Assembly: GCA_965243235.1 (NCBI GenBank)
Contig: CBDEUI010000004.1
Location: forward strand, 1,298,031 to 1,362,030
Length of the DNA stretch: 64,000 nt
Reading direction: 5' to 3'
Source: Dehalococcoidia bacterium
GTDB taxonomy: Bacteria; Chloroflexota; Dehalococcoidia; Lucifugimonadales; Lucifugimonadaceae
Shown here: positions 12,186 to 52,329 of the stretch, piece after piece
Numbering within the stretch: the stretch's first letter is position 1
How the letters are laid out: the number at the start of each line of letters is the position of its first letter
The notes under the pieces: model-generated
The model's database searches: none
What the model was told of the DNA's origin: nothing
Seen by the model: only the letters and a program-made list of their open reading frames with translations
Program-made: the position numbers and the translations under genes

Positions 12186-13310
12186 TCAGAGATCGATTGT
12201 TGAAATACGGTGATGCATGACGAAGTCCCCGTCGATCTCAAAACCAAGACCAGGCGCAGTCGGCGCGGTCAAGACACCATCCGAGTTGACCAAGATCTCC
12301 TGCTCTAACCCGAACTGTTGCGCTTCCAATGGACTCCAATACTCATAGAAATCACAGTTCAGTACCGACATGATGACGTTGAGATTCGCCGCGTTCATCA
12401 ATGAATTGCCGGCGGTACCCACTTCGCAATTGACGTTAAAACCTTCGGCCATTCCACACTGTTTTTTCAGTCCAGTGATTCCGATTTTGCGGGTCGTGCC
12501 TCGGATGGTTGGAGGCCAACCTTGCTCGAGGGCGCGGGCGGCTTCGTGGAAAAGGAATTCCCCTGCGTCGCTCATGTTGAGCGGAGTATCGAGTTCCTCG
12601 GAAAGTGTGCGGATGGCGCGCCAGTCTCCCCATGGGACGGGGTCTTCGAACCAGTGGAAGTTGGTTTCGTCTAACGCTCGTCCGATTTTCAAAGCGTCGC
12701 GAAGGTTGTACCCGTTGTTGGGATCGAGCATTAAACGCATCTCGTCACCGACCTCTTGACGGACTGCGCGGACCATCTGGATGACTCGGTCTGCAGGCAT
12801 TGCACCGGGGTGGATTTTGTATGCGGTGAAGCCTTGTTCGACGAGTTCGGCTGCTTCGGCGACGTAGCCTTCGACGGTGGAGTTTCGCGGTGGGTACGTG
12901 GCATAGACCTCTGTGGTTCGACGTGCGGTTCCGAGCATTTCGTGGACGGGCATGTCGGCGGCTTTACCAGCGGCGTCCCACATTGCTACGTCGATGTGTG
13001 ACCAGAGGGCGTGCAAGGATGTGGTTGCGCCGTGCCCGGACATGGGGTTGAGTTGATGCCAGAGCGCTTCGCGGTCTGCGATTTTCGTGCCGATTAGGCG
13101 ACCTTCGAACGCTGATTGGAACGCGCGGATCGTCGTTGCGCCTCCACCACCCCGGTCGCCGATGTGTGCGTTGCCTTCAACACCCGACTCGGTGATGAGC
13201 CTCAGAACACCGGCTGTCAACTTGCCACCCATGCCGCCGCGAGCATCGTTGACGCTTATGCGTGGGACATCGAACTCGATGACATCGATCATGGCTTCTG
13301 CTATCTTCAT
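12186..13310 (-). CDS. Enolase-superfamily enzyme (mandelate racemase/muconate lactonizing family)
   Basis: 374 aa. Motifs YKIHPG, LMLDPNNGY, FEDPVP. Second paralog in the window. Confidence 0.8.
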   Translation of the reverse strand: MKIAEAMIDVIEFDVPRISVNDARGGMGGKLTAGVLRLITESGVEGNAHIGDRGGGGATTIRAFQSAFEGRLIGTKIADREALWHQLNPMSGHGATTSLHALWSHIDVAMWDAAGKAADMPVHEMLGTARRTTEVYATYPPRNSTVEGYVAEAAELVEQGFTAYKIHPGAMPADRVIQMVRAVRQEVGDEMRLMLDPNNGYNLRDALKIGRALDETNFHWFEDPVPWGDWRAIRTLSEELDTPLNMSDAGEFLFHEAARALEQGWPPTIRGTTRKIGITGLKKQCGMAEGFNVNCEVGTAGNSLMNAANLNVIMSVLNCDFYEYWSPLEAQQFGLEQEILVNSDGVLTAPTAPGLGFEIDGDFVMHHRISTIDL

Positions 13311-23345: not shown

Positions 23346-23622
23346 ATGCGGTCGTGCCAAGCGGGGAGCTAGCGGTGCCCTGAACCTGCAATCCGCTCAG
23401 CAGGGCCGGAATCCTCGTGGAGGTTTCGCAGTTCGAACCGCTGGCATTCGATGCTCGGTGTTGAGAGTCGGGTTCTTGCGCGGCAGAGTCCCGTGAACCC
23501 CGTCAGGTCCGGAAGGAAGCAGCGGTAAGCGGATAGCTCTGGGCGACGCAGGGTGATCTGATTCGAGCCGAGGCGGGTGCCAAGTACGGGCTACATTCCG
23601 AATTCGAGGTGCACGGCCGCAT
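23346..23622 (+). ncRNA. ffs: Signal recognition particle RNA, long (Bacillus-type, with Alu domain)
   Basis: Domain IV motif GTCAGGTCCGGAAGGAAGCAGCGGTAAG at about 23502-23529. The 5' region GCGGGGAGCTAGCGGTGCCCTGAACCTGCAATCCGCTCAGCAGGGCCGGAATCC resembles, from my memory of it, the Alu-domain 5' region of long Bacillus-type SRP RNA (not re-aligned against a reference). Terminal helix pairs ATGCGGTCGTGC (23346-23357) with GCACGGCCGCAT (23611-23622). Confidence 0.85.
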
Positions 23623-28144: not shown

Positions 28145-28149
28145 AGCAA

Positions 28150-28800
28150 CTAGGCGCCGATCCGACCACCGTTGGAGCGGCGCCCCGAAAAACGAAGAAT
28201 CGCCGCGTCGCAACGGAGAGCGTGCACCCTCCTTGTCGGCGCCGACAAACAAACACAATTGAATACTGCATCGGTCGCGGGCGGGTAGCACGGAGCCGCC
28301 AACACACGGCTCCGCGACGGTGTCCGCCAAAAGTCATGGAAGACGTCTGAGAGGATGGGCGAAACGCGACCGCAAAATCCGGTTACGGGGGTCGTTGTAG
28401 CTCCAGGGTCCGAATGCGGAGTGTTACGCTGGCTCCGACTAGCAAGCCAGACGTGCCTCTCCCTCCCCCTCCAGAGGGGGCCTCAGATCCCCCTCCTTCA
28501 GGAGGGGGCTGGGGGGAGGTCACGTTCAAGGTTCGGGCGAACGCATCCCCTATCCGGCAGACGTCTGCCCGATTCGTCGGTCGGGTGAGGCTACGGCATC
28601 AGCGAGGGGAGGAACCGAGCGATGACAGGGGTCGATCTTCAAGACGCCCCCGGAGAGCCGACGGTCTGGCGACGTCGGCGATGCCGGATCAAGTCGTGCA
28701 GCTACCTATCGCACGCGACCCGAAAGAAACGGCGCGGCGATGATTCGAACATCGAACAGCCGAACAAAATCCCCCCAAAGGGAGAATTGAACGCGTCCAG
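28150..28800 (+). other. Hairpin-dense non-coding spacer; candidate unclassified structured RNA or repeat cluster
   Basis: No protein-like ORF in six frames. Hairpins or palindromes at 28153-28184, 28235-28246, 28291-28314, 28465-28480, 28489-28508, 28556-28569 and 28657-28679. Strand assigned only from the putative promoter. Confidence 0.3.
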
Positions 28801-28819
28801 ACAGCGCCCACCCTAGTTC

Positions 28820-28839
28820 AAAAACGCCAAACGCGCTTT
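28820..28839 (-). terminator. Candidate intrinsic terminator of the peroxiredoxin gene
   Basis: The minus strand reads AAAGCGC-GTTTG-GCGTTTTT downstream of the stop at 28888. It is preceded by a CCTCT/AGAGG hairpin (28847-28862). Confidence 0.4.
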
Positions 28840-28887
28840 CCAACCGCCTCTGAGAGAAGAGGAACGATGAGGATTTGGAATGACGTA

Positions 28888-29361
28888 CTAAATCGCCGCG
28901 ACCGCTGCCTTCACATCATCGTACGAAGGCTCGTTCAGCGGAGAATCAGAAACCCATGCCCAGCGGACGTGCCCATCGCCGTCGATGACGAATACCGAGC
29001 GTTGGGCGACGTTGTAGCCTTCGATGCCGGCAAGGTTCGGGAGGCTTACTCCATACGCGTCGACAGTGGCACCGCCGAGGTCGCTCAGGAGAGGGAAGGT
29101 GAGGTCGTTCTGGGAGTGGAATTCGGCTTGCGAGAACGGAGGATCAACAGAGATGCCGAAGACTTTGGCGTTCATGCCGTTGAATTCAGCGAGAGAGTCG
29201 CGGAATGTGCACATCTCGGTCTGGCAAACGCCGGTGAAGGCAGCCGGGAAGAAGGCGAGGACGACGTTTGAGCCGCTCTGGTCGCTGAGAGAGACCATCT
29301 CTCCGTCTGTGGATCTGAGATTGAAATCTGGGGCGTGATCGCCCACCTTAACTGCGGCCAT
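28888..29361 (-). CDS. Peroxiredoxin (AhpC/TSA, AhpE/Bcp-like)
   Basis: 157 aa. [15 protein letters not shown] active-site context. Confidence 0.85.
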
Positions 29362-29444
29362 GTTTAACTCCGTTGGATGTCGTGCAAATCAGTTGCTGGT
29401 TTAGATTGACGATAGCGATTCTACTAAGATTCGGGCTATCGTTA

Positions 29445-30566
29445 ATGGATGCGGTTCGATTGGACAAGGCAAAGGAAACGAATTTGAACGACGGGAAACT
29501 CAAGAAACGAGTGTTGGTAGTTGGCGCTGGCGCAGTTGGCAGCTATATCGGCGGATGGCTGGCACACACAGGTCACGACGTGGTTTTCGCCGATTCCTGG
29601 GCGGAGCAGGTAGACATTATCAACTCCGAGGGCTTGCGCGTCGAAGGCCCTCACGAGCCTTTCGTGTCCCATCCACGGGCCTTCCACCTCCATCAGTCGC
29701 AGGCGTTAGCCTTGGAGCCCAAGTTCGATATCGCGTTCATCGCAGTCAAGGCCTATGACACCTCTTGGGCAGCGCGCTTCGCATTGCGCTTCGTCAAGGA
29801 TGATGGCTACTTTGTGTCGTCACAGAACTGCATGCCGGACAGCGACATGGCAGACGCGATTGGCGCAGACCGATGCATCGGATTGATCATGTCGTCAATC
29901 GCGGTTCGGGTCGGCGGACCTGGATTATCGCAACGCGCGGGGACAAAGAGACGTCGAGATTTGGGACACATCGTATTCCGGGCAGGCGAACATGACGGTG
30001 CTGAATCGGAGCGAATCGCAGAGTTGATTTCGATACTCGAACCGATAGACGGTGGCAAGACGACGACCAATCTGCAAGGGGAGCGTTGGGCCAAGCTCTG
30101 TCAGAACAGCATGGGCAACCCGGTCGTCGGTGCTACGATGTGCGGATCAGCGACAGTCGCGTCGTCGCCGCGCGGGCGCGAGTTACAGATACGGTTGGCA
30201 TCAGAGTCAGCGCAGGTCGGATTGGCGTTGGGGCTGGATGTCGTTAGTTTTGGCAGCTCGACGCCGCAGAAATGGTCGGCAGCATCGACCGATGGCGAGA
30301 TGTACGAGGAACTCGACAACATGTTGGCGGCCAACGCGGGTGCCGGGACTGGAGATTGGCATCCGTCGATGGGTCAGGACGTTCAGAACGGTAGACCGTC
30401 AGAGATCGATTTCATGAACGGGCATGTGCTGAAGATGGGTCGAGAAGTAGGTGTCGCTACGCCGGTCACGGCGTCGATAGTCGATGCGATGCGCCAGGTT
30501 GATCGCGGAGAGTTGGTGCCTGACGAATCGAACATCGAATTGGTACTTTCGAACGCTGGTTTCTGA
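29445..30566 (+). CDS. Ketopantoate reductase (PanE/ApbA) family oxidoreductase
   Basis: Rossmann motif VVGAGAVGSYIGGWLA. Start placed at ATG 29445; the ORF track starts at 29373. Confidence 0.75.
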   Translation: MDAVRLDKAKETNLNDGKLKKRVLVVGAGAVGSYIGGWLAHTGHDVVFADSWAEQVDIINSEGLRVEGPHEPFVSHPRAFHLHQSQALALEPKFDIAFIAVKAYDTSWAARFALRFVKDDGYFVSSQNCMPDSDMADAIGADRCIGLIMSSIAVRVGGPGLSQRAGTKRRRDLGHIVFRAGEHDGAESERIAELISILEPIDGGKTTTNLQGERWAKLCQNSMGNPVVGATMCGSATVASSPRGRELQIRLASESAQVGLALGLDVVSFGSSTPQKWSAASTDGEMYEELDNMLAANAGAGTGDWHPSMGQDVQNGRPSEIDFMNGHVLKMGREVGVATPVTASIVDAMRQVDRGELVPDESNIELVLSNAGF

Positions 30567-30580
30567 GCGATTCGCGAACC

Positions 30581-33466
30581 TTGATTTCAGACGACATCTC
30601 AAAACCCCCTTCAATTCCCCCTTTCCCAAAGGGGGAGGGAGAGAAGGTCTCGCCACGCGCCGAGACTTTGGTGGCGTTGGACCTTGAGACGACTGGACTG
30701 AACTCTGCAAGCGATCGTATTATCGATGTCGGAGCGGTCAAATTCCGAGGCGATGAACAGATCGGCGAGTTCCATTCGCTGGTGAATCCGCGCTCCCGGC
30801 TATCGGATTTCATCGTTTCTCTCACAGGCATATCCCAAGCAGACGTCGACGATGCGCCGGATTGGAACGCGATCCGGGACGATCTCCAAGAGTTCATCGG
30901 CGATGCGAGGCTAGTAGGACACAACGTCGAGTTCGATGTCGGATTCCTACGCTCGCATCGGATCCACGTCGAGAAGCTCAGTTATGACACCGAGCAGATG
31001 GCGAGAGTCGCTTTGCCGGGAGGTCCGGAGTTCGGACTGGTTCGGCTGGCGCAACGGTTCGGAGTCCTGCATGACGATCCGCATCGGGCATTGTCGGATG
31101 CGTTAGCGTCGAGGGATCTCTTCCTGATATTGTTGGCGAGATTCGAGGCGATGCCGACAGCGGCTTTGACACGGATCGCCGCGTTAGGCTCGCGATCGAA
31201 CTGGAGTGTCAGCGAGTTGGCATCCAATATGGTGGCCGCTGGCGATGGGACCGACGAAATAGTAGGTCGACTTGGGATTGACGAAGATCTGTTGAGCGAT
31301 CGCATTAGGCTGCCGGGCAGACCAGCAACTTGGGGCGAAGGAGCCAGCGAGGATGAGGGTGGTTTTTCGGACGAACATGTAGTCCAAACGGAGATGGCGT
31401 TCTTGCCCGGAGGCTTGGTGGAGGAGACGATGCCAGCGTTCGAGGCTCGGGACGGACAGCGCGAAATGGCGGTAGCGGTCGCCCGCGCGATTGCCGGTCA
31501 GCAAAAGCTGATGGTTGAAGCAGGAACCGGGATCGGCAAATCATTGGCCTATCTTCTGCCAGCCGCGTTGATGGTTGCAGGACAGGGCGGCAGGGCTGTG
31601 ATCTCAACCAACACGCTGAACCTGCAAGAGCAGCTTTTGAACAAAGATTTCGGAACGGTTCGAGAAATCGTGAAGCGGGAAACAGGCGTCGAGTTGGACG
31701 CGGTGCAGCTGAAGGGGCGGTCAAACTACCTGTGTGTCCAGAGATGGCGGGATGCGGTTTCGCAACCTAATCATGACCAGTCGGAAGCGCGGGTGTTATC
31801 GCAATGCATGAATTGGCTTGGCAAGACCGAGACGGGAGACCGGTCTGAGTTGTCTTTGGGGTGGGATACCGGGATTTTCAGTCGTCTTTCAGCGGAAGGT
31901 TGTCCTCCGACCACAGTTGGCGGTGGTTACCCCTGTCAGGGTCCTCCATGTTTCATGCTCAAGGCACGTTCGGACGCGCACCAAGCCGATGTCCTGATAG
32001 TCAATCACGCGCTACTGATTAGCGATATGGCAGCAGAGAACAATATCCTGCCGCCTCATCAAGTCTTGGTAATTGACGAGGCTCACCACCTGCGCGACGT
32101 TGCTACTCGCCATCTCGGATTCGAAATCAGGGAAACGCAGTTCATGGACGATCTTGGCGCTTTGACGCGGGCCGATGGGATGTTCCCCCGTCTGGTTCGC
32201 CTCGCCACATCGCGCGGCGGAGGGGAAGAGGCGCTATCGTCTGTGCCCGACCTGCAACGCCGAGTCGTTGAAGCGGCAGACAAGGCGACGCTCGAGTCGA
32301 GCCGGATGTTTGAGGCACTTCGCGACCTGACGGGTTACGTGACGCGGCAGGAACGGACACGCGAGATGCGGATTTTGGGAATGACACGCATCACGAGCGA
32401 ATGGCGGCGGGGCGTTGACGAGCCATGGGTCGTGCTGCACCCGGCGTTGAGCACGGTCGTCACAGGACTGCGCTCGTTGTTGGATCTAGCGGGTAACGAT
32501 AGTCAACCAGACGCCGCGGTCATAAACGTCAACGCTCTCTACGAGCGTCTTAGAGACATCAATAGTTGGTTGATGGCCCTGATCGAGCAGCCCGACGAGA
32601 ACTTCGTCTATTGGAGTTCAGTGAATCAGCGCCGAAACATGGAACTCCATCTCAGCGGTGCACCTCTGGATGTGGCCTCGGAATTGCGATCGGGACTGTT
32701 TAGTCAAGACCGTGCCCACATCTTGACTGGTGCCACGATTAGTGAATCTGGCAGTTTCGAACGCGTTCAGACCACGTTAGGTTTCGATGCGGACGAGACT
32801 CTGAGCATCGGTTCTCCGTTCGATTTCAAGAACGCAGCACTGATCTTGGTGCCTGAAGATATCCCGCAGCCCAACACGCCCGGTTACAACGAAGCGGTCA
32901 CAAGCGCGGTTCACGACATTGCGTCGGCGACGCAGGGTCGGACTCTCGCATTGTTCACTGCGAACTCGGCGCTGAACAACACTCGTGACGTGCTGTTCAA
33001 CCAATTCAAGAACACGGAGACTCAGGTGTTTGGTCAAGGCCGGGACGGCCCAGCGGCGCGGGTGATGCAGCTTTTGAACGATACCGAGAACGCCGTCGCG
33101 TTGGGAGCGATGAGCCTGTGGGAAGGCATCGATCTGCAGGACGCGTCGATCGATTCGCTGGTGATGACAAGACTCCCATTTCCGGTGCCGCGAGATCCGA
33201 TTCACGAGGCTCGGTCAGAGAATCTTGAGAACCCGTTCAATGGGTATTTCGTCCCAGAGGCAGTCACGAAGTTCCGCCAAGGTTTCGGCAGATTAATACG
33301 TTCTCGAACTGACCGGGGCGTTTTTGTCGTTTTAGATAGGCGCATCATCTCGAAGAGATACGGACGATTGTTCCAGAAATCTATCCCGCAGGGCACGGTT
33401 CGACGTGTCACGTTAGGCACGATTTCAGAGTACGTGGAGAAATGGTTGGCGGGAGTGCCGGTTTGA
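30581..33466 (+). CDS. dinG: DinG-family ATP-dependent DNA helicase fused to an N-terminal DnaQ-like 3'-5' exonuclease
   Basis: Exonuclease motif ALDLETTGL. Helicase motifs AGTGIGKS and DEAHH. A four-Cys Fe-S region is present. The true start is uncertain; TTG 30668 or GTG 30671 is plausible, because 30581-30667 consists of hairpin repeats. Confidence 0.85.
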   Translation: MISDDISKPPSIPPFPKGEGEKVSPRAETLVALDLETTGLNSASDRIIDVGAVKFRGDEQIGEFHSLVNPRSRLSDFIVSLTGISQADVDDAPDWNAIRDDLQEFIGDARLVGHNVEFDVGFLRSHRIHVEKLSYDTEQMARVALPGGPEFGLVRLAQRFGVLHDDPHRALSDALASRDLFLILLARFEAMPTAALTRIAALGSRSNWSVSELASNMVAAGDGTDEIVGRLGIDEDLLSDRIRLPGRPATWGEGASEDEGGFSDEHVVQTEMAFLPGGLVEETMPAFEARDGQREMAVAVARAIAGQQKLMVEAGTGIGKSLAYLLPAALMVAGQGGRAVISTNTLNLQEQLLNKDFGTVREIVKRETGVELDAVQLKGRSNYLCVQRWRDAVSQPNHDQSEARVLSQCMNWLGKTETGDRSELSLGWDTGIFSRLSAEGCPPTTVGGGYPCQGPPCFMLKARSDAHQADVLIVNHALLISDMAAENNILPPHQVLVIDEAHHLRDVATRHLGFEIRETQFMDDLGALTRADGMFPRLVRLATSRGGGEEALSSVPDLQRRVVEAADKATLESSRMFEALRDLTGYVTRQERTREMRILGMTRITSEWRRGVDEPWVVLHPALSTVVTGLRSLLDLAGNDSQPDAAVINVNALYERLRDINSWLMALIEQPDENFVYWSSVNQRRNMELHLSGAPLDVASELRSGLFSQDRAHILTGATISESGSFERVQTTLGFDADETLSIGSPFDFKNAALILVPEDIPQPNTPGYNEAVTSAVHDIASATQGRTLALFTANSALNNTRDVLFNQFKNTETQVFGQGRDGPAARVMQLLNDTENAVALGAMSLWEGIDLQDASIDSLVMTRLPFPVPRDPIHEARSENLENPFNGYFVPEAVTKFRQGFGRLIRSRTDRGVFVVLDRRIISKRYGRLFQKSIPQGTVRRVTLGTISEYVEKWLAGVPV
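30617..30666 (+). terminator. Two hairpins between the PanE-like gene and dinG
   Basis: Hairpin 1: CCCCCTTT-CCC-AAAGGGGG (30617-30635). Hairpin 2: GTCTCG-CCACGCGC-CGAGAC (30647-30666). No clear U-tract follows. Confidence 0.35.
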
Positions 33467-34359
33467 AATCTGCTACCGAATTGTCGGACACCGAACAAAG
33501 TGAAATCGTCTCATTGAAGCTCGATGTCGAGCCTTTCGATTTGCAGCAGACTTTAGACGGTGGTCAGGCATTCAGATGGTACGGCGCTGGCCATGGGATG
33601 TTCCGCGGAGTTTTGGGTTCTTGCGTTGTAACCATAGAACGCGACGGAACAATCGTTTCGGTAGACAGGACGAACGGAATTGATTGCAAAGCTCTAAGGC
33701 GTGACATCGAAGACTACCTAGTCGCGACCGCTGATGTAGCGAGGTTGCGTGCGTTGCTCTCGGGTGAGCCGGGGTTCGGACATGATGTCGCCGAGTCACC
33801 GCTAATCCGTGTAATGCGGCAAGAGCCTTGGGAATGCTTGGTTGGATTCATCTGCTCGCAGAACTCGAACATTCCTCGCATCAAGCAGATGGTGGCCGCC
33901 GTTGCACGGATGGGGCGGCGCATCGGATCCCAAGATTGGGCTTTCGAGTTGCCGGATCCAAATGTGGTCGCCGACGCTGGCGAAACGTACCTGCGTGAGG
34001 TCGGATTGGGTTATCGTGCCAAACATCTCGCGTCAACTGCCGAGATGTTGGTGAATTCATCGGATATCGGCGAACTGCGCGACGCATCATACTACGACGC
34101 GAAAGAAGCATTGATGGAGTTTCCGGGAGTGGGACCGAAGGTGGCAGACTGCGTGCTGGCTTACTCGTTGGACAAGGGCGAGGCGTTCCCCGTGGATGTG
34201 CACGTTCGGCGTGCTGCAATCCGACTCTACGGTCTCGACGAGGACATCAAGAACGACGCCGTAGGGGAATGGGCCCGCGATCGTTTCGGCGAATACGCAG
34301 CGTGGGCGCAACTCTACATGTTCCGCGACGAGATCAACCGCCGGCTAAACGGCGCATGA
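33442..34359 (+). CDS. 8-oxoguanine DNA glycosylase / HhH-GPD family N-glycosylase-lyase
   Basis: GGQAFRW N-terminal domain and HhH-GPD motif FPGVGPKVADCVL...D. Overlaps the dinG 3' end by 25 nt if it starts at 33442. A later TTG near 33514 is also possible. Confidence 0.8.
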   Translation: MVGGSAGLKSATELSDTEQSEIVSLKLDVEPFDLQQTLDGGQAFRWYGAGHGMFRGVLGSCVVTIERDGTIVSVDRTNGIDCKALRRDIEDYLVATADVARLRALLSGEPGFGHDVAESPLIRVMRQEPWECLVGFICSQNSNIPRIKQMVAAVARMGRRIGSQDWAFELPDPNVVADAGETYLREVGLGYRAKHLASTAEMLVNSSDIGELRDASYYDAKEALMEFPGVGPKVADCVLAYSLDKGEAFPVDVHVRRAAIRLYGLDEDIKNDAVGEWARDRFGEYAAWAQLYMFRDEINRRLNGA

Positions 34360-35569
34360 CGTAGGCGCGTTCCTCGCCGGCGTTCGAGATCGAGCCTTCA
34401 ATGCGGGCTACCAGCAACTCGTCCAAAATTTGGCCGATCATCGGACCGCGCTCAACTCCGAGCGAGATCAAGTCGTCGCCATTGATAGCGGTTCGCATAG
34501 GTCGCAACCGATCTCTAAAATCGACCAAACGTCGCGAAACCTCAGAGTCGGTTTCGACGCAGATCGCAGCGCGGACGACTTCGTCGCGGACATCAATGAG
34601 CGATCGCCACAGTTCGACATCATTAAGATGTTCGCTTCGGAATCTCTTTGCAACGTTACCTACGATGTCGGTTTCACTGACGATTGCGCACCAATCCGAC
34701 GGTATCCTCAACCTCTCTGCGAGATTGGTCATCACACCCATTGGCGCAAGATAAGCGAAAGCAGCGAATCGTTCGGACTCAGTAGCGTCCTGAGAAATTT
34801 GTCGGAATGCCCCATCCCGAAAATCGGCGGTGGGAACGAATACGTTCAATATCCCATGTTTGGCTGCCATCGTCGTCAAGGCGCCTAGATCTTCGTGAGG
34901 TTGGAACCATAGACGAAACTCGTTGAAAACCCTTTGTGGCGACGCGTCACACATTTTTTCTAGGTGACGTAATGACGGCTGTGCCTCTTTCGCGGTTTCA
35001 GCGTCAAATGTGTAGCCGTACCGCGCAGCAAGTCGGACGCCACGCAACATGCGCAATGGGTCTTCGGCGAACGAATCATTGCGGATCACGCGCAGGATTT
35101 TTCTTGCCACGTCTCGCCGCCCCTTGAACGGATCGATTACTACTCCGAGGCCGTCGCAGGAAAGTTGGATTGCCATTGCGTTCACACTGAAGTCTCGCCT
35201 CTCCAGATCGGCATGTATGTTGTCAACCAGTGTTATCTGGGGCAATGAGCCCCAAGGTTCGTATAGGTCGGTACGCGCCGAAGCGATATCGATAGTCAGG
35301 CATCCGATATTGACTTTGACGGTGTGGAGCTGCGATGCGGATAGCAACGAACAATTGGCGTTTTCTTCGGTTAATGCCTCGGCGAACTTTACGGCATCAC
35401 CGATGATGGTTATGTCAGGCGAGGTGGCGATTTTCGGGAGCCGTGCAACGATGTCACGAACCATGCCGCCCACCAAATAGGCTTTGGTGTCATGGTTTGA
35501 CGCGGCGCGCGCGATCGTTCCGATAGCGTGGATCGACGCGTCTGGTAATCGGACATCGTCGAGCGACAA
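34334..35569 (-). CDS. CCA-adding enzyme / poly(A) polymerase-family tRNA nucleotidyltransferase
   Basis: YLVGGMVRD and RRDFSVNAMA motifs. The ORF is open to 35815, but that N-terminal stretch is Arg-rich and non-protein-like. TTG 35569 is a plausible start. Confidence 0.75.
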   Translation of the reverse strand: MSLDDVRLPDASIHAIGTIARAASNHDTKAYLVGGMVRDIVARLPKIATSPDITIIGDAVKFAEALTEENANCSLLSASQLHTVKVNIGCLTIDIASARTDLYEPWGSLPQITLVDNIHADLERRDFSVNAMAIQLSCDGLGVVIDPFKGRRDVARKILRVIRNDSFAEDPLRMLRGVRLAARYGYTFDAETAKEAQPSLRHLEKMCDASPQRVFNEFRLWFQPHEDLGALTTMAAKHGILNVFVPTADFRDGAFRQISQDATESERFAAFAYLAPMGVMTNLAERLRIPSDWCAIVSETDIVGNVAKRFRSEHLNDVELWRSLIDVRDEVVRAAICVETDSEVSRRLVDFRDRLRPMRTAINGDDLISLGVERGPMIGQILDELLVARIEGSISNAGEERAYVMRRLAGG

Positions 35570-35777
35570 ATATCCGCCGTCGCTATTCGGGTTTTCGTGC
35601 GTTTGATTGATCACTGGGCCGATATTTGGATCGATGGTCGCGAAATTGTTGATCAATGCGATGTTGGGTTCGCTGGTAGAATCTCTACGAGTTCGTGAAT
35701 TCCGAAATCTACGTGGACGCGTGTCGTTAGGATATCTGTAACACCTGAGCGTCCAATTGAAGAAAGGTCGGCCGACC

Positions 35778-36413
35778 ATGATTAACGACCTACCTATGAA
35801 AATCGATGTGTTCATCGACTACACCTGACCCTGGGTCCGCCAAGCTGGGATCTGGTTATCCCGGGTGAAGAATGAATTAGGCGACGACTTGCAGTTGAAT
35901 TACCGCAGTTTCGCGTTGGAGCAGGTGAATTCCAAAGAAGGACCAGATTGGAAGGCTTGGGAGCAGGGGCCGGATTACGAAAGCCGTGGTCTGTGGTCGT
36001 TGAGAGGTGGTATCGCGGCGCGGATGCAAGGCTACGACGCACACGACAAGTTCATGCTGGAGTTGCAGCATTTCAAGTTCGTTGAACGCGGCGACATCCG
36101 GGATCGGGAGCCGATAGTGGAGGCAGCACAGCGGGCCGGGCTTGACATCGACAAATTCGTCGCCGACCTCGATTCGCCAGAGCGACTTGCAGAAATCGGA
36201 CGAGACCATGAGGAGGCAGTGTCAAAGGGAATCTTCGGAACCCCCACGTTCATTTTCGAAGATGGCTCCGCGGCCTTCCTCAAGACGTTTACTCCTCCCG
36301 AGGAAGATTCCTTGGCTGCGTTCGAAAACATGGTGCTGATGGCGCGCAACCGTCCGTACTTTGGCGAGTTGAAGCGACCACAGCCGCCTTGGCCTCAGGG
36401 TGTAGAGGTCTGA
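35778..36413 (+). CDS. DsbA/FrnE-like thioredoxin-fold protein with in-frame TGA (35826-35828) at the active-site position; candidate selenoprotein
   Basis: Extending the frame of ORF 35865-36413 upstream gives M(35778)INDLPM(35796)KIDVFIDYT-TGA-PWVRQAGIWLSRVKNELGDD... GAAAGG lies 10 nt before ATG 35778. The cis-Pro region GIFGTPTFIF lies downstream. selC is present in the window. Confidence 0.6.
35845..35864 (+). promoter_or_regulatory. Candidate bacterial SECIS stem-loop
   Basis: CUGGGAU-[CUGGUU]-AUCCCGG: a 7-bp stem including one G-U pair, with a GU-containing apical loop. It starts 17 nt after the UGA. Confidence 0.35.
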
Positions 36414-36417: not shown

Positions 36418-37350
36418 TTGGCTCCTGAAATCATTCCAGAATCGGAAATAGACGAGCTTGAAACCAAGCTCGGAGTCAACTTCTCAAATCGAAGCTTGTT
36501 GCGTCAAGCATTGACGCACGAGTCGTTCGTCAACGAATGGGGCGCTGATGACGTTGAGAGAGGTATGCAATCGTACGAGCGCTTGGAGTACCTCGGCGAC
36601 GCAGTGTTGAACTACACAGTTGCCAACGCTCTGTTCGAGCGATCGTTGACCGCTACAGAAGGTGAAATGTCGATCGGGAGAGCGCACATCGTTTGCAGGG
36701 ATTCCCTAGCGCAAGCCGCACAGCGCTTGAACCTAGGCGACCACGTTTTGCGCGGCAAAGGCGAAGCAGCGTACAGCCCAAACGTCAGAGAATCCGTCCT
36801 AGAGGATTCTTTTGAGGCGATTATCGGAGCTATTCACGAGGATCAGGGCTACGAAGCGGCGAGCGGATTCGTTTTTCGGCACCTAGGAAAGCAGATTGAG
36901 CGAGTCGCCGCGCATGGCGTGGACAAAGACCCCAAATCGGCGTTTCAGGAGTTGGTGCAAGGCATCGGACTCCGGACGCCACGTTACTGGACGGGTAATG
37001 CCGGCACTGGTGCCGACGGTCAGCAACAATACGTCGCCAGGGTATCCATTGACGGAGAGATCGTCGCGTCAGGTTTCGGGAATAGCAAGTCGAAGGCGCA
37101 GAAGAGCGCCGCGGCGAATGCCCAATCGATCTTTGCCGACGGCGTACCGGAAAAATTCGTCAAGACTGCAATGAAATCCCAAAAAGCTGCTGCTACAAGC
37201 GGACAGACTTCGATCTCGTCTTCGGGTGTCAGAGCGTCTGGATCGACGTTCGATGGCTTCAGGCGCATTGGAAACTGGTTGGGCAATGTTGTGCTCCGCA
37301 GGAACAACTCATCACCCCGCCGACAGTTAATCTACAAGCGCTCCGATTAG
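36418..37350 (+). CDS. rnc: Ribonuclease III with C-terminal extension
   Basis: ERLEYLGDAVL signature and a dsRBD region, plus about 70 extra low-complexity C-terminal residues. Confidence 0.9.
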   Translation: MAPEIIPESEIDELETKLGVNFSNRSLLRQALTHESFVNEWGADDVERGMQSYERLEYLGDAVLNYTVANALFERSLTATEGEMSIGRAHIVCRDSLAQAAQRLNLGDHVLRGKGEAAYSPNVRESVLEDSFEAIIGAIHEDQGYEAASGFVFRHLGKQIERVAAHGVDKDPKSAFQELVQGIGLRTPRYWTGNAGTGADGQQQYVARVSIDGEIVASGFGNSKSKAQKSAAANAQSIFADGVPEKFVKTAMKSQKAAATSGQTSISSSGVRASGSTFDGFRRIGNWLGNVVLRRNNSSPRRQLIYKRSD

Positions 37351-37369: not shown

Positions 37370-38296
37370 ATGCTCCGACTACTTGGCAGACGTGACAAGA
37401 CGTCCGAATCGTCCGCGGAAACTCGCCGATCATGGACAAATCTTGTCGGTGGAGTATTTCGTCGCACCAAGGTTGACGACGAGTTTTGGGAGGCCCTAGA
37501 AGAAGCGCTGATCGTGGCTGACGTCGGTGTCGAGACGGCGATGCAACTCGTCGAGAAGATCCAAGAAGAGGCTAGATGGAGAGGGGCCCGAACTCCCGAC
37601 GCGGTCTACGAATTGTTACGAACCGAAATATCCGAGATGCTCACTGACGGTGAGGCTGCCGCAGCTTTCGCTGAAGATGGTCCCGTTGCGGTGATGGTTG
37701 TTGGGGTAAACGGTTCCGGTAAGACCACCAGCATCGGAAAACTTGCGCAAGCCGCCAAATCAGACGGGCGTGTTCCACTGATCGCGGCCGCCGACACCTT
37801 CAGAGCTGGTGCCATATCCCAACTGGAGACATGGGCGCGGAGAACCGACACGATGTTTGTTTCTTCGGCCGCCGGAGCAGATCCGGGTTCCGTCGTCTAC
37901 GACGCGTTGAATGCGGCTAAATCCCGCGGGGCCGATTTCGTCGTAATCGATACCGCGGGCAGGTTGCACACCGCGCACAACTTGATGGAAGAACTCAAGA
38001 AAATGCGACGGATTCTCGATCGGCATTCAAGCGATTTCAAACCGCGAGTGTTGCTGGTCATTGATGGCAATACTGGTCAGAATGGTGTCACGCAGGCCAA
38101 AGTGTTCACAGAAGCGGTCGGTTGCGACGGAGTGATTCTGACGAAACTGGACAGCACGGCGAAGGGCGGCGTGATATTGGCGATCCGCGGCGAAATGGGA
38201 CTGCCGGTCAGGTACATCGGCACGGGCGAGGGCATTGACGACATCGCACCGTTCGATCCTCGAGGCTTTGCAGAGACGATACTTCCCGCCGCGTAA
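37370..38296 (+). CDS. ftsY: Signal recognition particle receptor
   Basis: NG domain motifs GVNGSGKTTSIGK, DTAGR, TKLD. Confidence 0.9.
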   Translation: MLRLLGRRDKTSESSAETRRSWTNLVGGVFRRTKVDDEFWEALEEALIVADVGVETAMQLVEKIQEEARWRGARTPDAVYELLRTEISEMLTDGEAAAAFAEDGPVAVMVVGVNGSGKTTSIGKLAQAAKSDGRVPLIAAADTFRAGAISQLETWARRTDTMFVSSAAGADPGSVVYDALNAAKSRGADFVVIDTAGRLHTAHNLMEELKKMRRILDRHSSDFKPRVLLVIDGNTGQNGVTQAKVFTEAVGCDGVILTKLDSTAKGGVILAIRGEMGLPVRYIGTGEGIDDIAPFDPRGFAETILPAA

Positions 38297-46584: not shown

Positions 46585-47109
46585 TTGACGACAAGTCAGC
46601 AACAGAGCCGACCGGAGTTGCGCGAGCGAATCCGTGGAGCACTCGAATCCCAGCGCACCGACAAGGAGAGGGTACCGAGCATCACCGTACTTTCTTCGCT
46701 TCTCGCGGTCCAAGACGATCTGCACTATATCCCCGATGAAGCGATCGAAGAGACCGCGATCTTCTGCAACGCCACCATAAACGACGTTTGGAGCGTCGCA
46801 TCTTTCTATACCAACTTCCGGTTTACCCCGCCGGGTATGACTACGGTCGATGTTTGCTGGGGACCGACCTGCCACCTCATGGGAGCGCAGAAAGTGTTGG
46901 ATGCCGTGCAGGATGAGTTGGGTGTGGACTCCGAAGAAACCAGCGCCGATGGCAAAATCACGTTGCGTTACAGCACTTGTCTCGGGGCGTGCGCCCAAGC
47001 CCCGGTCATCGCACGCGACCACATCCTGAAAGGGCGCGCTAACCCAGATTCAGCCCGCCAATACATAGTTGACCTTCAACAGGAACTCGAGAATGGTATC
47101 GCGCACTGA
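46585..47109 (+). CDS. NuoE-like [2Fe-2S] thioredoxin-fold ferredoxin subunit
   Basis: 174 aa. Cys motifs CWGPTCHLMG and CLGACAQAP. Confidence 0.85.
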   Translation: MTTSQQQSRPELRERIRGALESQRTDKERVPSITVLSSLLAVQDDLHYIPDEAIEETAIFCNATINDVWSVASFYTNFRFTPPGMTTVDVCWGPTCHLMGAQKVLDAVQDELGVDSEETSADGKITLRYSTCLGACAQAPVIARDHILKGRANPDSARQYIVDLQQELENGIAH

Positions 47110-48874
47110 AGCACCTGTGGACACCTACGCAGAGGCGATGAGTCAGCAGACGCAGTACGCATTGCTGCGCGCTCGTGCACGTCAACGATGGGATGATCTG
47201 ACAGAGGGTGACAAACCCTGGGTGCGGGTCGGATTTGGAGCATCAGGTCAAGCCGCTGGAGCACAAGCCGTTTTCAATGCCCTAAAACCTTATGGACCAG
47301 AGGGCACCGACCAGATCAATCTGTCTATGGTCGGAGCACACGGGTTGATGTACCTTGAACCGCTCGTCGACATCATCGTTCCCCGCGCAAATCGCGTGTT
47401 CCACGCAAATGTGACACCCGAAATAGTGCCGGACATAATGTCCCACTACATCGATGGGCGCGATCAGCATCCCATGCACGCTTCCGCGTACGCATATTCT
47501 GGACACGTAGACGATTACACATCGCATTTGTCCGACTGGGATCAGTTGCCACCTAATCAGCTCCAGAAAAAGATACTCACCGAAAATTTCGGGAACATCG
47601 ATCCGCACGATATCTTCCAGTACATCGCCCAAGACGGATACTCAGCCCTGAACAAAGCGGTGCTGTCAATGACCCCGGACGAAGTTTTGGAAGAGGTCAA
47701 GACATCTGGCCTGCGAGGGCGCGGGGGAGCAGCATTCCCGACCGGCCTGAAGTGGTCTTTTCTCGCCCCTAGCAATGCACCTGTGAAGTATGTGCTCTGC
47801 AACTGCGAAGAGGGGGACCCGGGCGCGTTTAACGACAAGGGCATTCTTGAGAGCGATCCGCACCGATTGATTGAGGGATTGATACTCAACGGCTACGCGA
47901 CCAACTCTACTCACGGCGTCGTGTTTATCCGACAGGGACACGACATCCCCATCGAGGCAACCCGTCGCGCGATCGGTGAGGCATACGAAAACGGCGTCCT
48001 TGGCGAGAACATCCTCGGATCCGACTTCTCGTTCGAAATGGAAGTTTCGTTGACCGGTGACTCATATGTCGCTGGTGAAGAGACTGCGATGATGGAGGCG
48101 ATTGAAGGAAAACGCTCGACGCCAAGATACAAGCCACCATTCCCCGCACAGGCTGGACTTTTCCAGAAACCGACCAACATCAACAACGTCAAGACAATCG
48201 CCTATGTGCCAAGCATCGTGGCGACCAGTGGTGATGAATTCAAAAAGGTAGGCACCGAATCGTCATCTGGAACCGCGTTGGTGTGCCTTACCGGCCACAT
48301 CAAGCGTCCGGGGATGTATGAAGTCGAGATGGGAGTAACCATTCGTCAGGTCTTGGACGACATCGGCGGCGGTGTTGCTGATGGTTCCGAGCGCATCAAG
48401 GTTCTACAGACCGGTGGCCCACTCGGCGGCGTGATGGGCGAAGAAGCGTTTGACACCGAGATCGATTTCGACGCTATGGCCCAATCAGGCGCGATCCTCG
48501 GTTCAGGCGGCATCATCGTCGGCGACGAAACAACCGATGTCGTTGACCTGATACGTAACCTCGTGGCTTTCAACCAGTTCGAGTCATGCGGCAAGTGCTT
48601 CCCGTGCAGATTGGGCAACACTCACATGCTGGACGTGCTTGACAGAATGTGCAAGAACGAAGCCAAACCTGGTGACATGCAGTTGCTGGAGACGGTTGGA
48701 AATAATATGAAGATCGGTTCGCTCTGCGGACACGGCCAACTCGGCTACAACCCGATATCTTCGGCGATAACCTACTTCGGCGAGGAGTTCGAGAAACGGT
48801 TCAACGGTGAGTTGGAGAAGTCCGGACCATTTGGCGATGGTTCGATGATCCTCCCGAGCCGCACGCGCCCATGA
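47093..48874 (+). CDS. NuoF-like NAD(H)-binding FMN/[4Fe-4S] flavoprotein subunit
   Basis: GLRGRGGAAFPTGLKW (FMN/NADH site) and CGKCFPCRLG (N3 cluster). An N-terminal extension of about 180 aa is present. Start uncertain (47069, 47093 or 47138). Confidence 0.85.
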   Translation: MVSRTEAPVDTYAEAMSQQTQYALLRARARQRWDDLTEGDKPWVRVGFGASGQAAGAQAVFNALKPYGPEGTDQINLSMVGAHGLMYLEPLVDIIVPRANRVFHANVTPEIVPDIMSHYIDGRDQHPMHASAYAYSGHVDDYTSHLSDWDQLPPNQLQKKILTENFGNIDPHDIFQYIAQDGYSALNKAVLSMTPDEVLEEVKTSGLRGRGGAAFPTGLKWSFLAPSNAPVKYVLCNCEEGDPGAFNDKGILESDPHRLIEGLILNGYATNSTHGVVFIRQGHDIPIEATRRAIGEAYENGVLGENILGSDFSFEMEVSLTGDSYVAGEETAMMEAIEGKRSTPRYKPPFPAQAGLFQKPTNINNVKTIAYVPSIVATSGDEFKKVGTESSSGTALVCLTGHIKRPGMYEVEMGVTIRQVLDDIGGGVADGSERIKVLQTGGPLGGVMGEEAFDTEIDFDAMAQSGAILGSGGIIVGDETTDVVDLIRNLVAFNQFESCGKCFPCRLGNTHMLDVLDRMCKNEAKPGDMQLLETVGNNMKIGSLCGHGQLGYNPISSAITYFGEEFEKRFNGELEKSGPFGDGSMILPSRTRP

Positions 48875-48907
48875 GATCGATTTACACGACTGGTGGCGAG
48901 AGACAAC

Positions 48908-51628
48908 ATGCCTGAACCTATCAAGTTCACAATCGACGGTCAGCAAGTCGAGGCTGCTCCTGGTCAAACGATCCTTCAAGCAGCGCTGGAAGCCGGGATC
49001 TACATCCCCTATCTCTGTTATTTCCCGAACATGAAGCCATACGGCGCTTGTCGCACCTGCGTCGTCGACACCGAGGCAGGCGGCCGCAAGATGACGTTGG
49101 CGTCATGCACTGCTACACCGATGCCGGACATGGTGGTAGAGACGAAAAACGAGTCGGTAAGCGAACTGCGACGTGGAATCATTGAACTATTAATGTCGGA
49201 ACATCCTCATGGATGTCTGACGTGTCACCGGATCGAGTTGTGTGGACCGCAAGACGTCTGTCAGAGGCACGTAGATGTCACCGATCGATGCACGATCTGC
49301 CCGAAGAACGAGCGATGCGAGCTTAAGGACACCGTAAGATCAGTCGAACTCGACCTGCGTACGCCCCTCAACTACAACCGTCGCGACCTTCCGATTCACG
49401 CCGACGATCCGCTCTACGACCGCGACTACAACCTCTGCATCGTATGCGCTCGTTGTGTGCGCGTGTGCGACGAAGTGCGAGGGGATACCGCATTGACGCT
49501 AACATCTCGATCCGGTGTCTCACTCGTCGGCACATCGCACGGCACTTCTTTAATGGAGTCGGGTTGCGAGTTCTGTGGCGCATGTATCGACGTCTGCCCC
49601 ACTGGGGCGTTGGTGGAGCGGGAATACAAGTGGGAAAAGGCGAGCCGACAAGTCACGACGACCTGTACCAACTGTGCCGTCGGTTGTCAGATGATTGCTG
49701 AGGTCAACCGCTTCGACAAGGTGATACGGTTCCGCGGCGATGTCAACGGTGCTCCAAATCTCGGCCAGGCCTGCTTCAAAGGCAAATTTGGTTACGACTA
49801 CCCCAACCATCGGTCTAGGCTAAAGCGCCCATACTTCAGAAAAGGCGGCATTCTCACCAACGCGACGACAGAAGACGCATTTACTGCCGCGGCTAGTGCG
49901 CTGTCGAAGTATTCCCCCGATGAAATCGCGGTCATTGCTTCTCCGCGCGGAAGCAACGAAGATAACTTCATAGCCCAGAAATTCGCACGAACCGCGTTGA
50001 AGACCAACAACGTGGACAGCGCACATAACTTCATCGACGATATGACGAAGCACATCGCAGAGCGTTGGGACATCGAACACACCAAGCGGTCGATATGGGA
50101 CATCGAAGATTCCAAGTCCGTCATGGTCGTGTCAGGAAATCCAACTGAAGACCAGAACGTGCTAGCGGTGCCGGTGAAACGAGCCGCCAAGCGTGGCGCC
50201 AAGATCGTCGTCATCGATCAGCGAGAGACCGAGTTGACGCGTTACGCCGATGTCTGGCTCAGACCGAGAATCGGCACGGCACACATGGCTGTCATGGGTA
50301 TCATTCGATCAGTATTCGACGCAACTTTGGAGCAGGTCGACTTCATTCGTGAAAACGTCAAGAACAGCGAGGATTTCAAAGCCTCGCTATGGGATTACGA
50401 TCTGGGTCGAATTGCCCGTTACTGCGACATCCCCATCGAAGACTTTTCGGAGGCTGCTTCCGCACTCGCGAGCCACCGCGAAATGGCCGTATTGCTTGGA
50501 GAAGATACCGTTCCGCAGATCAGGCATGACGCATTGGTAGACGCGGTTATGAATCTGCGTCTGCTCAACGGCACGACGGATGGCCCTGGCCAAGGCGTCT
50601 ATCCACTCTATTTCGGCGCGAACACCCGCGGCTCGGAGCAAGTTGGATGTCGCCCATTGTCCGCAAAATCTGAACTCGCACAAACCTTGAGTCAGGCGTG
50701 GGGCATGGATTTCCCCAGCGAGGAACCCAAGGGAGTTACTGAGATTTTTGATGCAATGCGAGACGGGAAGATCAAGGCGGCAATCGTTATGGCCGATGGC
50801 GTGAATCACACGGCGAGGCAGTTTGGCGACATCGACTCCGCTTTGGGATCGCTAGAGACTCTCATCGTCTCATCCGTGTTCGACAACGAGATAACCGCGA
50901 AAGCCAGTATCGTATTCCCTGCCGCGCCATTCTCTGAGCAGACTTCCACTGCGACCAATCTTGAGTCCCGAGTGCAACTCATCCGCCAAGCAAGCGAACC
51001 TCGATTCGATGAGATTGCAGGTTGGGAATTATTCGTTGGACTGGCGAATGCGATGGGAGCATCAGGGTTTGACTACAGTTCGTCGAGCGAGATATTCGAC
51101 TTGATCTGCGCGACGATACCCGAGTACTCGGGCTTGAGTTACGATGCCTTGGCAAGCAGCGGCAAGATTACCAAAGCACCTGACGCCGGTTCGGTTGAGC
51201 CAACGTTCGAGATCAATAAACCTGATTTCACCGCTTATGCATCGAACGGAATGTATTACGCGCCGGGACGGGTGTTGCATCAACCCGACCGCGAAACCAC
51301 GCTTTCAGAACGTAACTACTTGAACGTGATCGATCGCGTTGAGGTGATCGAAATACATGAAGAGGATGCCGCGTCCCTTGGTGTTTCGGACGGTGATTCC
51401 GTGCTGATTAAGGACTACAGCGGCACGACTGTTGCTGAGGGCGTTGCAAACATCACCGATACGATGCGCGGCATGGTATGCAGCACGACTCTGTTTGCAG
51501 AATTGGCAACATACATCGAAGATTGCGAATACCCGGACCCTTCACCGACAGTGCCCGCACTCGACGTTCGATCGGTTACAGTTGAAGTCGTCGCTAAGGC
51601 ACCAATACGAGAATTGGCGCAGGTTTGA
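48908..51628 (+). CDS. NuoG/FdhA-like Fe-S + molybdopterin-oxidoreductase-fold subunit lacking the Sec/Cys-His catalytic pair
   Basis: N-terminal 2Fe-2S and 4Fe-4S Cys motifs, then an MopB-type CTNCAVGC cluster. The region TNNVDSAHNFIDDM aligns by eye to TNNVDCCARVUHGP of FdhF. Confidence 0.8.
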   Translation: MPEPIKFTIDGQQVEAAPGQTILQAALEAGIYIPYLCYFPNMKPYGACRTCVVDTEAGGRKMTLASCTATPMPDMVVETKNESVSELRRGIIELLMSEHPHGCLTCHRIELCGPQDVCQRHVDVTDRCTICPKNERCELKDTVRSVELDLRTPLNYNRRDLPIHADDPLYDRDYNLCIVCARCVRVCDEVRGDTALTLTSRSGVSLVGTSHGTSLMESGCEFCGACIDVCPTGALVEREYKWEKASRQVTTTCTNCAVGCQMIAEVNRFDKVIRFRGDVNGAPNLGQACFKGKFGYDYPNHRSRLKRPYFRKGGILTNATTEDAFTAAASALSKYSPDEIAVIASPRGSNEDNFIAQKFARTALKTNNVDSAHNFIDDMTKHIAERWDIEHTKRSIWDIEDSKSVMVVSGNPTEDQNVLAVPVKRAAKRGAKIVVIDQRETELTRYADVWLRPRIGTAHMAVMGIIRSVFDATLEQVDFIRENVKNSEDFKASLWDYDLGRIARYCDIPIEDFSEAASALASHREMAVLLGEDTVPQIRHDALVDAVMNLRLLNGTTDGPGQGVYPLYFGANTRGSEQVGCRPLSAKSELAQTLSQAWGMDFPSEEPKGVTEIFDAMRDGKIKAAIVMADGVNHTARQFGDIDSALGSLETLIVSSVFDNEITAKASIVFPAAPFSEQTSTATNLESRVQLIRQASEPRFDEIAGWELFVGLANAMGASGFDYSSSSEIFDLICATIPEYSGLSYDALASSGKITKAPDAGSVEPTFEINKPDFTAYASNGMYYAPGRVLHQPDRETTLSERNYLNVIDRVEVIEIHEEDAASLGVSDGDSVLIKDYSGTTVAEGVANITDTMRGMVCSTTLFAELATYIEDCEYPDPSPTVPALDVRSVTVEVVAKAPIRELAQV

Positions 51629-52231: not shown

Positions 52232-52329
52232 GGGAGTGGATGGGTCCCGGTGGGCTTCACGGACTTCAAATCCGCTGGCGTGCATCCTTCGATGTGCGCG
52301 GAGGGTTCGACTCCCTTGCACTCCCGCCA
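52232..52329 (+). tRNA. selC: tRNA-Sec (anticodon UCA), CCA encoded
   Basis: 98 nt: GGGAGTGGATGGGTCCCGGTGGGCTTCACGGACTTCAAATCCGCTGGCGTGCATCCTTCGATGTGCGCGGAGGGTTCGACTCCCTTGCACTCCCGCCA. Anticodon loop CTTCAAA. 6-bp D stem with a 4-nt loop. 9-bp variable arm (GCGTGCATC/GATGTGCGC). T-loop TTCGACT. G discriminator. The layout resembles my recollection of E. coli selC. Confidence 0.8.

Follow-up and report, generated by a model that had tools for sequence, protein, structure and literature searches.

We analyzed a 64,000-nucleotide stretch of a Dehalococcoidia genome (contig CBDEUI010000004.1), referred to below as the window, and found that positions 35778 to 36413 of its forward strand very probably constitute one gene, predicted to encode a 211-residue cytoplasmic protein of the DsbA fold whose sole redox residue is a selenocysteine (Sec17) specified by the in-frame UGA at 35826-35828. 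An earlier note, made from the letters of this DNA, had proposed a U-P-W-V selenoprotein here. That reading is supported by the alignment of the TGA with Cys in relatives, by covariation in a downstream hairpin among relatives, and by a gene for the selenocysteine tRNA (tRNA-Sec) in the same window. The features on which the argument turns, including a hairpin that resembles a selenocysteine insertion sequence (SECIS), are the following.

35778..36413, + strand: predicted full coding sequence of the DsbA-like selenoprotein, from translation; 211 codons, with Sec at codon 17 and an ordinary TGA stop at 36411-36413
35762..35767, + strand: possible ribosome-binding site GAAAGG, 10 nt 5' of ATG 35778, suggested by the letters only
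35826..35828, + strand: in-frame UGA, predicted from the ortholog alignment to be read as Sec; residue 17, the first position of the CxxC slot
35845..35864, + strand: SECIS-like hairpin with a 7-bp stem and a 6-nt loop, from its fold and from three registers and covariation in relatives
52232..52329, + strand: tRNA-Sec gene (anticodon UCA), predicted decoder of the UGA, long variable arm, CCA end encoded, from ARAGORN and Rfam RF01852

The open reading frame (ORF) track of the window gives this gene as 35865-36413. As the earlier note stated, this call truncates it: the same frame extends upstream to ATG 35778 through a single TGA at 35826-35828, the sole stop in the frame back to 35739. The extended frame reads M(35778)INDLPM(35796)KIDVFIDYT, TGA, then PWVRQAGIWLSRV(GTG 35865)KNELG. 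The residues after Sec17 are thus P-W-V-R-Q-A-G-I-W-L-S-R-V(GTG 35865)-K-N-E-L, and the active-site motif is D-Y-T-U-P-W-V, with U-P-W-V in the CxxC slot. ATG 35778 aligns with the conserved start Met of orthologs, and the second Met (35796) is replaced by Ile or Val in most of them. Many genes in the window end in an ordinary TGA stop, the selenoprotein gene itself among them (36411-36413), which indicates that the genetic code has not been reassigned.

A DNA-level scan of one genome per species yielded 80 loci, 79 of them covering the Sec site, and all 80 came from Dehalococcoidia, SAR202, or unclassified Chloroflexota. Among the carriers is the cultured “Candidatus Lucifugimonas marina” JH545, represented by a complete genome (locus L045; NZ_CP046146.1). 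Another complete chromosome with the TGA form, OZ220682.1, shows 99% identity to the window across this gene. The earlier note had proposed asking whether Cys or TGA codons align with 35826. The aligned codon is TGA in 78 of the 79 loci, well beyond what chance would give, and TGT in one (L032), and the full-length protein homologs have Cys. The flanking peptides DVFIDYT and PWVRQAG are kept down to 55% overall identity, and an in-frame UGA is accordingly paired with Cys between stretches of conserved coding sequence. Six Cys-form orthologs were available as DNA (L032 and L081-L085). Around one of these, L085, the gene order matches that of the window (DinG-like helicase, 8-oxoguanine glycosylase, CCA-adding enzyme on the minus strand, DsbA-like gene, RNase III, FtsY, DUF2298), which identifies the Cys forms as true orthologs in which the exchange between Sec and Cys happened in place.

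Cys forms are rare, occurring in 1 of the 79 genomes and in 8 of the best 120 of 394 homologous proteins. At least one of them (L082) comes from a farmland soil metagenome, whereas the other loci with a named source are marine or sponge associated. An aquatic preference for Sec has been reported, and the soil origin of this Cys form may reflect it. The two codons immediately 5' of the Sec UGA (35817-35825) are nearly frozen at their synonymous sites: Tyr15 is UAC in 76 of 77 sequences and Thr16 is ACC in 69 of 79, against a gene-wide normalized codon entropy of about 0.87. Such uniformity points to a constraint of codon context on the recoding of the UGA or to membership in an extended structure.

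When C is substituted for U, the protein of 211 residues matches the Pfam DSBA family (PF01323) with 63.8 bits (cut-off, 25.6) over residues 9-165, corresponding to positions 2-176 of the hidden Markov model (HMM). The match reaches HMM position 2 only when the upstream extension is included; because it does so at residue 9, the 29 residues dropped by the ORF track correspond to strand beta1 and the active-site turn. The structure was modeled with AlphaFold2 on a Cys ortholog (P0009) that is 71% identical to the window protein, with a predicted local distance difference test score of 92.5 and a predicted template modeling (TM) score of 0.88. The model has the topology of a DSBA-like thioredoxin fold (beta-alpha-beta, a helical insert, beta-beta-alpha), and its Foldseek matches are DsbA-family proteins throughout. 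Residue 17 lies between strand 7-13 and helix 18-37, the canonical active-site position of DsbA and thioredoxin; the Sec/Cys residue is at the N terminus of helix alpha1 and faces the invariant cis-Pro loop (T155-P156). The earlier note had also recognized the family layout with its cis-Pro stretch GIFGTPTFIF; we confirmed this stretch, in which the T-P does not vary among 85 homologs.

The window protein is entirely free of Cys. A second conserved Cys is absent from the family, and 72 of 85 homologs have no Cys of any kind, which leaves Sec17 as the sole redox-active residue and bears out the earlier proposal of a lone Sec (UxxV). The active site is therefore not a CxxC dithiol: the motif is U-P-W-V, or C-P-W-V in the Cys forms. 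As judged by eye, there is no hydrophobic N-terminal stretch that could serve as a signal peptide or export segment, strand beta1 starting from residue 7, and by the same judgment the protein lacks the export feature of a classical periplasmic DsbA. No specific family model matched in NCBIfam, where the best match was the Rcas_1661 selenolipoprotein model with 22.8 bits (cut-off, 190).

The hairpin downstream of the UGA pairs CUGGGAU (35845-35851) with AUCCCGG (35858-35864), including one U-G pair, around the loop CUGGUU (35852-35857), which includes the UGG codon of the invariant Trp26. It starts at the 17th nucleotide after the UGA, with a distance of 23 nt from the UGA to the loop; the coordinates that the earlier note gave for this 7-bp stem-loop were exact. 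The bacterial SECIS (bSECIS) model calls for a stem of 4-16 bp, a loop of 3-9 nt, a UGA-to-loop distance of 16-37 nt, and an energy of at most -7.5 kcal/mol (PMC13188914), and the window hairpin falls within all of these limits (7 bp, 6 nt, 23 nt, and -9.6 kcal/mol for the hairpin alone, an energy that beats 97.7% of synonymous recodings). The model also includes, as criterion (ii), a G in one of the first two loop positions (PMC13188914). Stem, loop length, spacing, and energy thus agree with the model, but the loop departs from criterion (ii), having G at positions 3-4. A minority of accepted selenoprotein genes fall outside the bSECIS model (PMC13188914), and 87.4% of those in BSepDB are canonical (PMC13326102).

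Similar hairpins occur in the relatives: 75 of 79 TGA forms have one of 7-8 bp with a loop that starts 21-24 nt after the UGA, the hairpin itself beginning 16-20 nt downstream. In all clades, a hairpin of about 7 bp places its loop over the codons of I/V25 and W26, and this is reached in three different registers.

Window clade: 5' stem CUGGGAU, loop CUGGUU, 3' stem AUCCCGG
Second clade: 5' stem GGCNGGC, loop AUUUG, 3' stem GCNGGCC
Third clade: 5' stem GGCGGCC, loop GUUU, 3' stem GGCUGUC

A single consensus structure for all relatives does not fit, since three registers exist. Across L001-L080 (17-39 nt after the UGA), the stem apparently changed its place on the mRNA, and the loop kept its position over the Ile/Val-Trp codons. 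The loop of the AUUUG clade also lacks a leading G, and the GUUU clade alone has one. Pair 21-33 of the second register connects an Ala and a Leu codon at their third positions, and it is found as C-G (18 sequences), U-G (14), G-C (3), G-U (2), and U-A (1). The covariation score of 0.136, compared with a shuffled mean of 0.085, was reached by none of 500 shuffles. The unpaired cells in the covariation table come mostly from the GUUU-loop clade.

An alternative hypothesis is that the hairpin is a by-product of the peptide A-G-I-W-L-A/S, whose codons are GC rich and partly self-complementary, and that the true SECIS lies elsewhere or is recognized in an unusual manner. Several results weigh against our reading of the hairpin and speak for this alternative. 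Taken alone, the window hairpin is no better than chance: the minimum free energy (MFE) of 60 nt has a z score of -0.30, and 68 of 200 dinucleotide shuffles fold as well. The MFE of the whole 45-nt region in the relatives is likewise no better than that of synonymous recodings (mean z = -0.46; 4 of 79 at ≤0.05), and support for the structure consequently comes from a statistic restricted by position and from covariation that is essentially confined to one pair. Synonymous diversity of the hairpin codons is only slightly below that of the rest of the gene (0.79 versus 0.87; P = 0.03). The amino acid sequence dictates three of the seven stem pairs, the Cys form L081, with the identical peptide QAGIWLARV, still has six of the seven pairs, and the first two positions of the window loop lack G.

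Other observations oppose a by-product. In 59 of 79 TGA forms, the best single hairpin inside the bSECIS window is more stable than at least 95% of recodings (median fraction, 0.023), a count to be read with the knowledge that this hairpin-only statistic was chosen after the whole-region MFE test had failed and that the 79 sequences are phylogenetically related. By comparison, none of the six Cys forms (L032 and L081-L085) has a significant hairpin (fractions, 0.10-0.66). Free synonymous sites stay paired, as the five pair types at 21-33 illustrate, and three clades arrive at a 7-bp hairpin at the same distance from the UGA by way of different registers. The conservation that the earlier note had made a test of its hairpin was found as compensatory synonymous changes in the TGA forms, without significance in the Cys forms. 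In our reading of these sequences, the peptide would predispose the RNA to pair, and the TGA forms would additionally keep the free positions paired; we consider it unlikely that the hairpin is a by-product.

A tRNA-Sec gene lies 16 kb from the selenoprotein gene. The tRNA-Sec(UCA) that the earlier note had placed at 52232-52329 was called there by ARAGORN and by Rfam (RF01852), the latter with 68.2 bits (gathering score, 47; E = 8.7e-12), and it folds with the long extra arm that is characteristic of tRNA-Sec; the window thus contains selC. We found no selA, selB, or selD within the 64 kb, which counts against Sec decoding as far as the window reaches. A 633-amino-acid GTPase considered as selB was rejected because it is LepA. 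The ORF at 10927-12078 on the minus strand was considered as selA and rejected, as it scores 55.6 bits on the selA model (cut-off, 267.9) and is a paralog of the DgaE-family ammonia-lyases, which are pyridoxal phosphate enzymes (TIGR01437, 201.8 bits). The other ORFs of the window bear no relation to these genes. It could pass for selA in a quick scan, and it stands among sugar-acid genes, with an enolase-superfamily gene at 12186-13310 and a thiamine pyrophosphate enzyme at 8576-10237.

The lack of selB and selD in the window, together with a loop that is off the canonical SelB-binding consensus (PMC13188914), would favor a second alternative, in which near-cognate or suppressor decoding reads the UGA as Trp or Cys and the hairpin serves only to stimulate read-through. 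We regard this as quite improbable. The window holds a bona fide tRNA-Sec(UCA), the recoded site corresponds to the catalytic Cys, and no residue other than Cys was seen there as an alternative, a Sec/Cys pairing that is the classic signature by which selenoproteins are defined (PMC1088965). Moreover, two Dehalococcoidia metagenome-assembled genomes (MAGs), with 46 and 49 selenoprotein genes, are listed in the top ten of bacteria by selenoprotein number (PMC13326102), and Sec decoding in the class is thereby documented. Our literature search on SAR202 together with selenocysteine found nothing specific.

A third alternative takes the public gene calls at face value: the gene would start after the TGA, at GTG 35865, and encode a truncated DsbA-like protein without an active site, the sequence upstream being an untranslated leader. 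Every automatic public gene call of the TGA form does begin after the TGA, and the GTG lies directly 3' of the hairpin. A protein search of 5.8 billion proteins returned 394 homologs, and lengths and starts were taken from the best 120. Of these, 112 are only 124-195 amino acids long and lack the N terminus, and many begin MRQAG, which shows that the gene caller took the GTG of the motif Val as a start codon. The remaining 8 are full length (211-218 amino acids), come from metagenomes, and all read D-Y-T-C-P-W-V-R-Q. Records at NCBI, JGI, and ENA label the truncated family members “DsbA family protein” or “hypothetical protein.”

The comparative evidence makes a late start very hard to sustain. 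In 78 species, the 16 codons upstream show conservation at the protein level (KIDVFIDYT) with the start Met kept, and strand beta1 and the active-site turn of the DSBA domain are encoded there. The called post-TGA starts vary among relatives (178, 182, 185, 187, and 192 amino acids) and hence are not conserved, and no Shine-Dalgarno-like sequence was seen in the letters 5' of GTG 35865. Two outcomes that the earlier note had feared, orthologs that begin at the equivalent of 35865 and upstream frames broken by other stops, did not materialize: the upstream frame is kept with its Met aligned to ATG 35778, and no ortholog has another stop in it. Because the TGA, its flanks, and the start Met are conserved and no other stop intervenes, we rule out a downstream start as well as a pseudogene or assembly error. 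The last of these, a pseudogene or a misread Cys codon (TGT or TGC to TGA), which a one-base difference in metagenome-derived sequence might suggest, is the least credible of all, given the same TGA in 78 independent species-level genomes, including the complete genome of a cultured strain (L045), and a frame that is otherwise intact in all TGA-bearing loci.

DsbA-like selenoproteins as such are not new. Nine UxxC sequences were described in a survey of the Sargasso Sea in 2005 (PMC1088965), a 2016 census recorded them in 41 organisms (PMC5029168), and a 2026 catalogue distinguishes form 1 (UxxC) from form 2 (DxxUP), the latter represented by MDP6049977.1, which is named as a crotonase family protein (PMC13188914). 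Form 1 resembles the window protein in belonging to PF01323, in having Sec first in the CxxC slot, a UGA with a downstream stem-loop, and Cys homologs, and in its marine origin. It differs in having Cys at +3, where the window protein, which has no Cys, has Val; with Val at this position, no intramolecular selenenylsulfide is possible. Form 2 shares PF01323, and D14-Y-T-U17-P18 fits its motif, which specifies no Cys at +3. This comparison is by motif description only, and the crotonase name of the representative hints at a different architecture: a crotonase domain was found in none of the best 120 of the 394 homologs, and the gene upstream of the window gene is on the opposite strand. A literature search on the form 2 accession returned nothing specific, the accession turning up solely in the 2026 catalogue.

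The best solved relative is DR_2335 of Deinococcus radiodurans (PDB 7DK9, and 7DKA for C24S), both by profile (E = 4.5e-16 over residues 9-203) and by fold, where the P0009 model gave a Foldseek TM score of 0.80 and a root mean square deviation of 2.7-2.8 Å. DR_2335 is predicted to be cytoplasmic and has a single conserved Cys, in D-F-L-C-P-Y-A, that aligns with the Sec (DFLCPYAW with DYTCPWVR). The two proteins have in common the GTPT loop with its cis-Pro and an R-P-x-P tail at the C terminus; they differ in sequence (about 25% identity) and in Cys instead of Sec. With full-length homology and Cys or Sec at the N terminus of helix alpha1, the window protein belongs with the single-Cys proteins of the DR_2335 type. 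No function has been reported for DR_2335 (PMC8945050, PMC6300522), so any functional proposal for the window protein leans on fold and neighbors, a weakness of that part of our interpretation.

Next in the fold ranking are YjbH, an Spx adaptor, and the Mycobacterium tuberculosis reductase Rv2466c (4NXI, 4ZIL, 5XUR), followed lower down by the kappa-class glutathione S-transferase/2-hydroxychromene-2-carboxylate (HCCA) isomerases and DsbM. Rv2466c, which is mycothiol dependent, and FrnE (5CNW) share a cytoplasmic DsbA fold and a C-P-W-x motif with the window protein (full-length alignment for Rv2466c, E of ~4e-4; TM score, 0.63-0.68), but both differ in their CPWC dithiol chemistry. FrnE gave only a partial, weak match (E = 1e-3, residues 95-160). 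The FrnE subfamily is characterized by CP(W/F)C and CxxxxC, and the window protein has neither a second Cys nor the C-terminal CxxxxC tail.

By analogy with the established bacterial pathway, a complex of SelB, GTP, and Sec-tRNA(Sec) would bind the hairpin (35845-35864) when the UGA comes up for translation on the ribosome, and Sec would be inserted; the second UGA (36411-36413), which has no such context, would terminate translation. A DsbA fold with one selenium and no sulfur redox center implies that the mechanism must be that of a monoselenol. From the fold, the missing signal peptide and resolving Cys, and the neighboring genes, we tentatively propose that the protein could act as a cytoplasmic monoselenol oxidoreductase with a monothiol-type mechanism. 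The selenolate would attack an oxidized substrate (a mixed disulfide, sulfenate, or peroxide), giving an Se-S or Se-OH intermediate, which an external thiol, either a low-molecular-weight thiol or thioredoxin, would then resolve. Such a mechanism would resemble those of monothiol glutaredoxin/bacilliredoxin and of the mycothiol-dependent DsbA-like reductase Rv2466c. The conserved neighbors, namely a peroxiredoxin, a DinG-like helicase, and an 8-oxoguanine glycosylase, fit a role in protection against oxidative damage.

The gene product is very probably a lone-Sec, DR_2335-type DsbA-fold selenoprotein that is near universal in the sampled SAR202 genomes and joins DsbA-like selenoproteins already catalogued. 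We speculate, with still less assurance than for its function, that it might define an uncatalogued subfamily: a syntenic core gene of SAR202, an abundant clade of the deep ocean, with the U-P-W-V motif, in which Sec is ancestral and sporadically replaced by Cys, the SECIS belongs to a class without a leading loop G whose register has shifted at least two times, and the chemistry needs an external thiol partner.

The public gene calls examined are truncated after the UGA and hence lack the active site, and their correction would give at least 78 species of SAR202/Dehalococcoidia one more core selenoprotein. The Sec/Cys pairing would also mark the aligned residue as the catalytic one throughout the single-Cys subfamily. 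The occurrence of three hairpin registers at the same position, of which two break the canonical loop rule, offers useful test cases for predictors of bacterial SECIS elements, and a cultured carrier (“Ca. Lucifugimonas marina” JH545, L045) makes the gene testable. Current understanding is not overturned, as thioredoxin-fold selenoproteins and selenoprotein-rich Dehalococcoidia were already documented. The result corrects the annotation cleanly and offers a good target for experiments, and it would not surprise a selenoprotein specialist.

The selenoprotein gene is situated between a minus-strand CCA-adding enzyme and a plus-strand RNase III-FtsY pair, in the following surroundings.

28888-29361, - strand: peroxiredoxin, part of an upstream oxidative-damage set
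30581-33466: DinG-like exonuclease-helicase, same set
33442-34359: 8-oxoguanine glycosylase, same set
34334-35815, - strand: maximal ORF of the CCA-adding/poly(A) polymerase family, 493 amino acids, overlapping the first 38 nt of the selenoprotein gene
36418..37350, + strand: RNase III gene, from Pfam, starting 5 nt after the selenoprotein stop
37370-38296, + strand: ftsY (signal recognition particle [SRP] receptor), following RNase III

No terminator-like site was found on the plus strand between the selenoprotein gene and RNase III, and the two are probably cotranscribed. The order selenoprotein, RNase III, ftsY is also seen in the Cys-form loci L082 and L085, and the upstream oxidative-damage set (28888-34359) is conserved around L085 (positions 1-4450 of that locus). 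Since the Pfam domain of the CCA-adding enzyme begins only at residue 112 and the L085 ortholog has 425 amino acids, the true start of that gene is probably farther downstream and the overlap with the selenoprotein gene is probably not real.

We also scanned the window for other TGA-interrupted genes. The candidate at 2504-3889 (plus strand) was resolved as two adjacent genes, an IscA/HesB-like gene (2504-2866) and a YgfZ/GcvT-like gene (2876-3889). The former ends in ..CGCGDSFAV-TGA, 9 nt upstream of and in frame with the latter, and is a Cys form; HesB-like proteins are a known selenoprotein family. A candidate at 28147-29400 was noise opposite the peroxiredoxin gene, and the remaining candidates were neighboring genes lying in a common frame. 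The tRNA-Sec gene is preceded by the following three genes.

46585-47109: NuoE-like gene
47069-48874: NuoF-like gene
48893-51628, + strand: NuoG/FdhA-like molybdopterin protein, 911 amino acids, directly upstream of tRNA-Sec

At the presumed position of the catalytic Sec/Cys of FdhF-type enzymes such as Escherichia coli FdhF, the molybdopterin protein reads ..TNNVDSAHNF.., with neither Sec nor Cys. On that basis, it is not a selenoprotein, and it may not be a catalytic formate dehydrogenase. Rfam also identified an RNA gene elsewhere in the window.

23352-23616, + strand: bacterial large SRP RNA (Rfam RF01854, 163 bits)

This RNA gene overlaps the 5' end of a maximal GalU ORF on the opposite strand.

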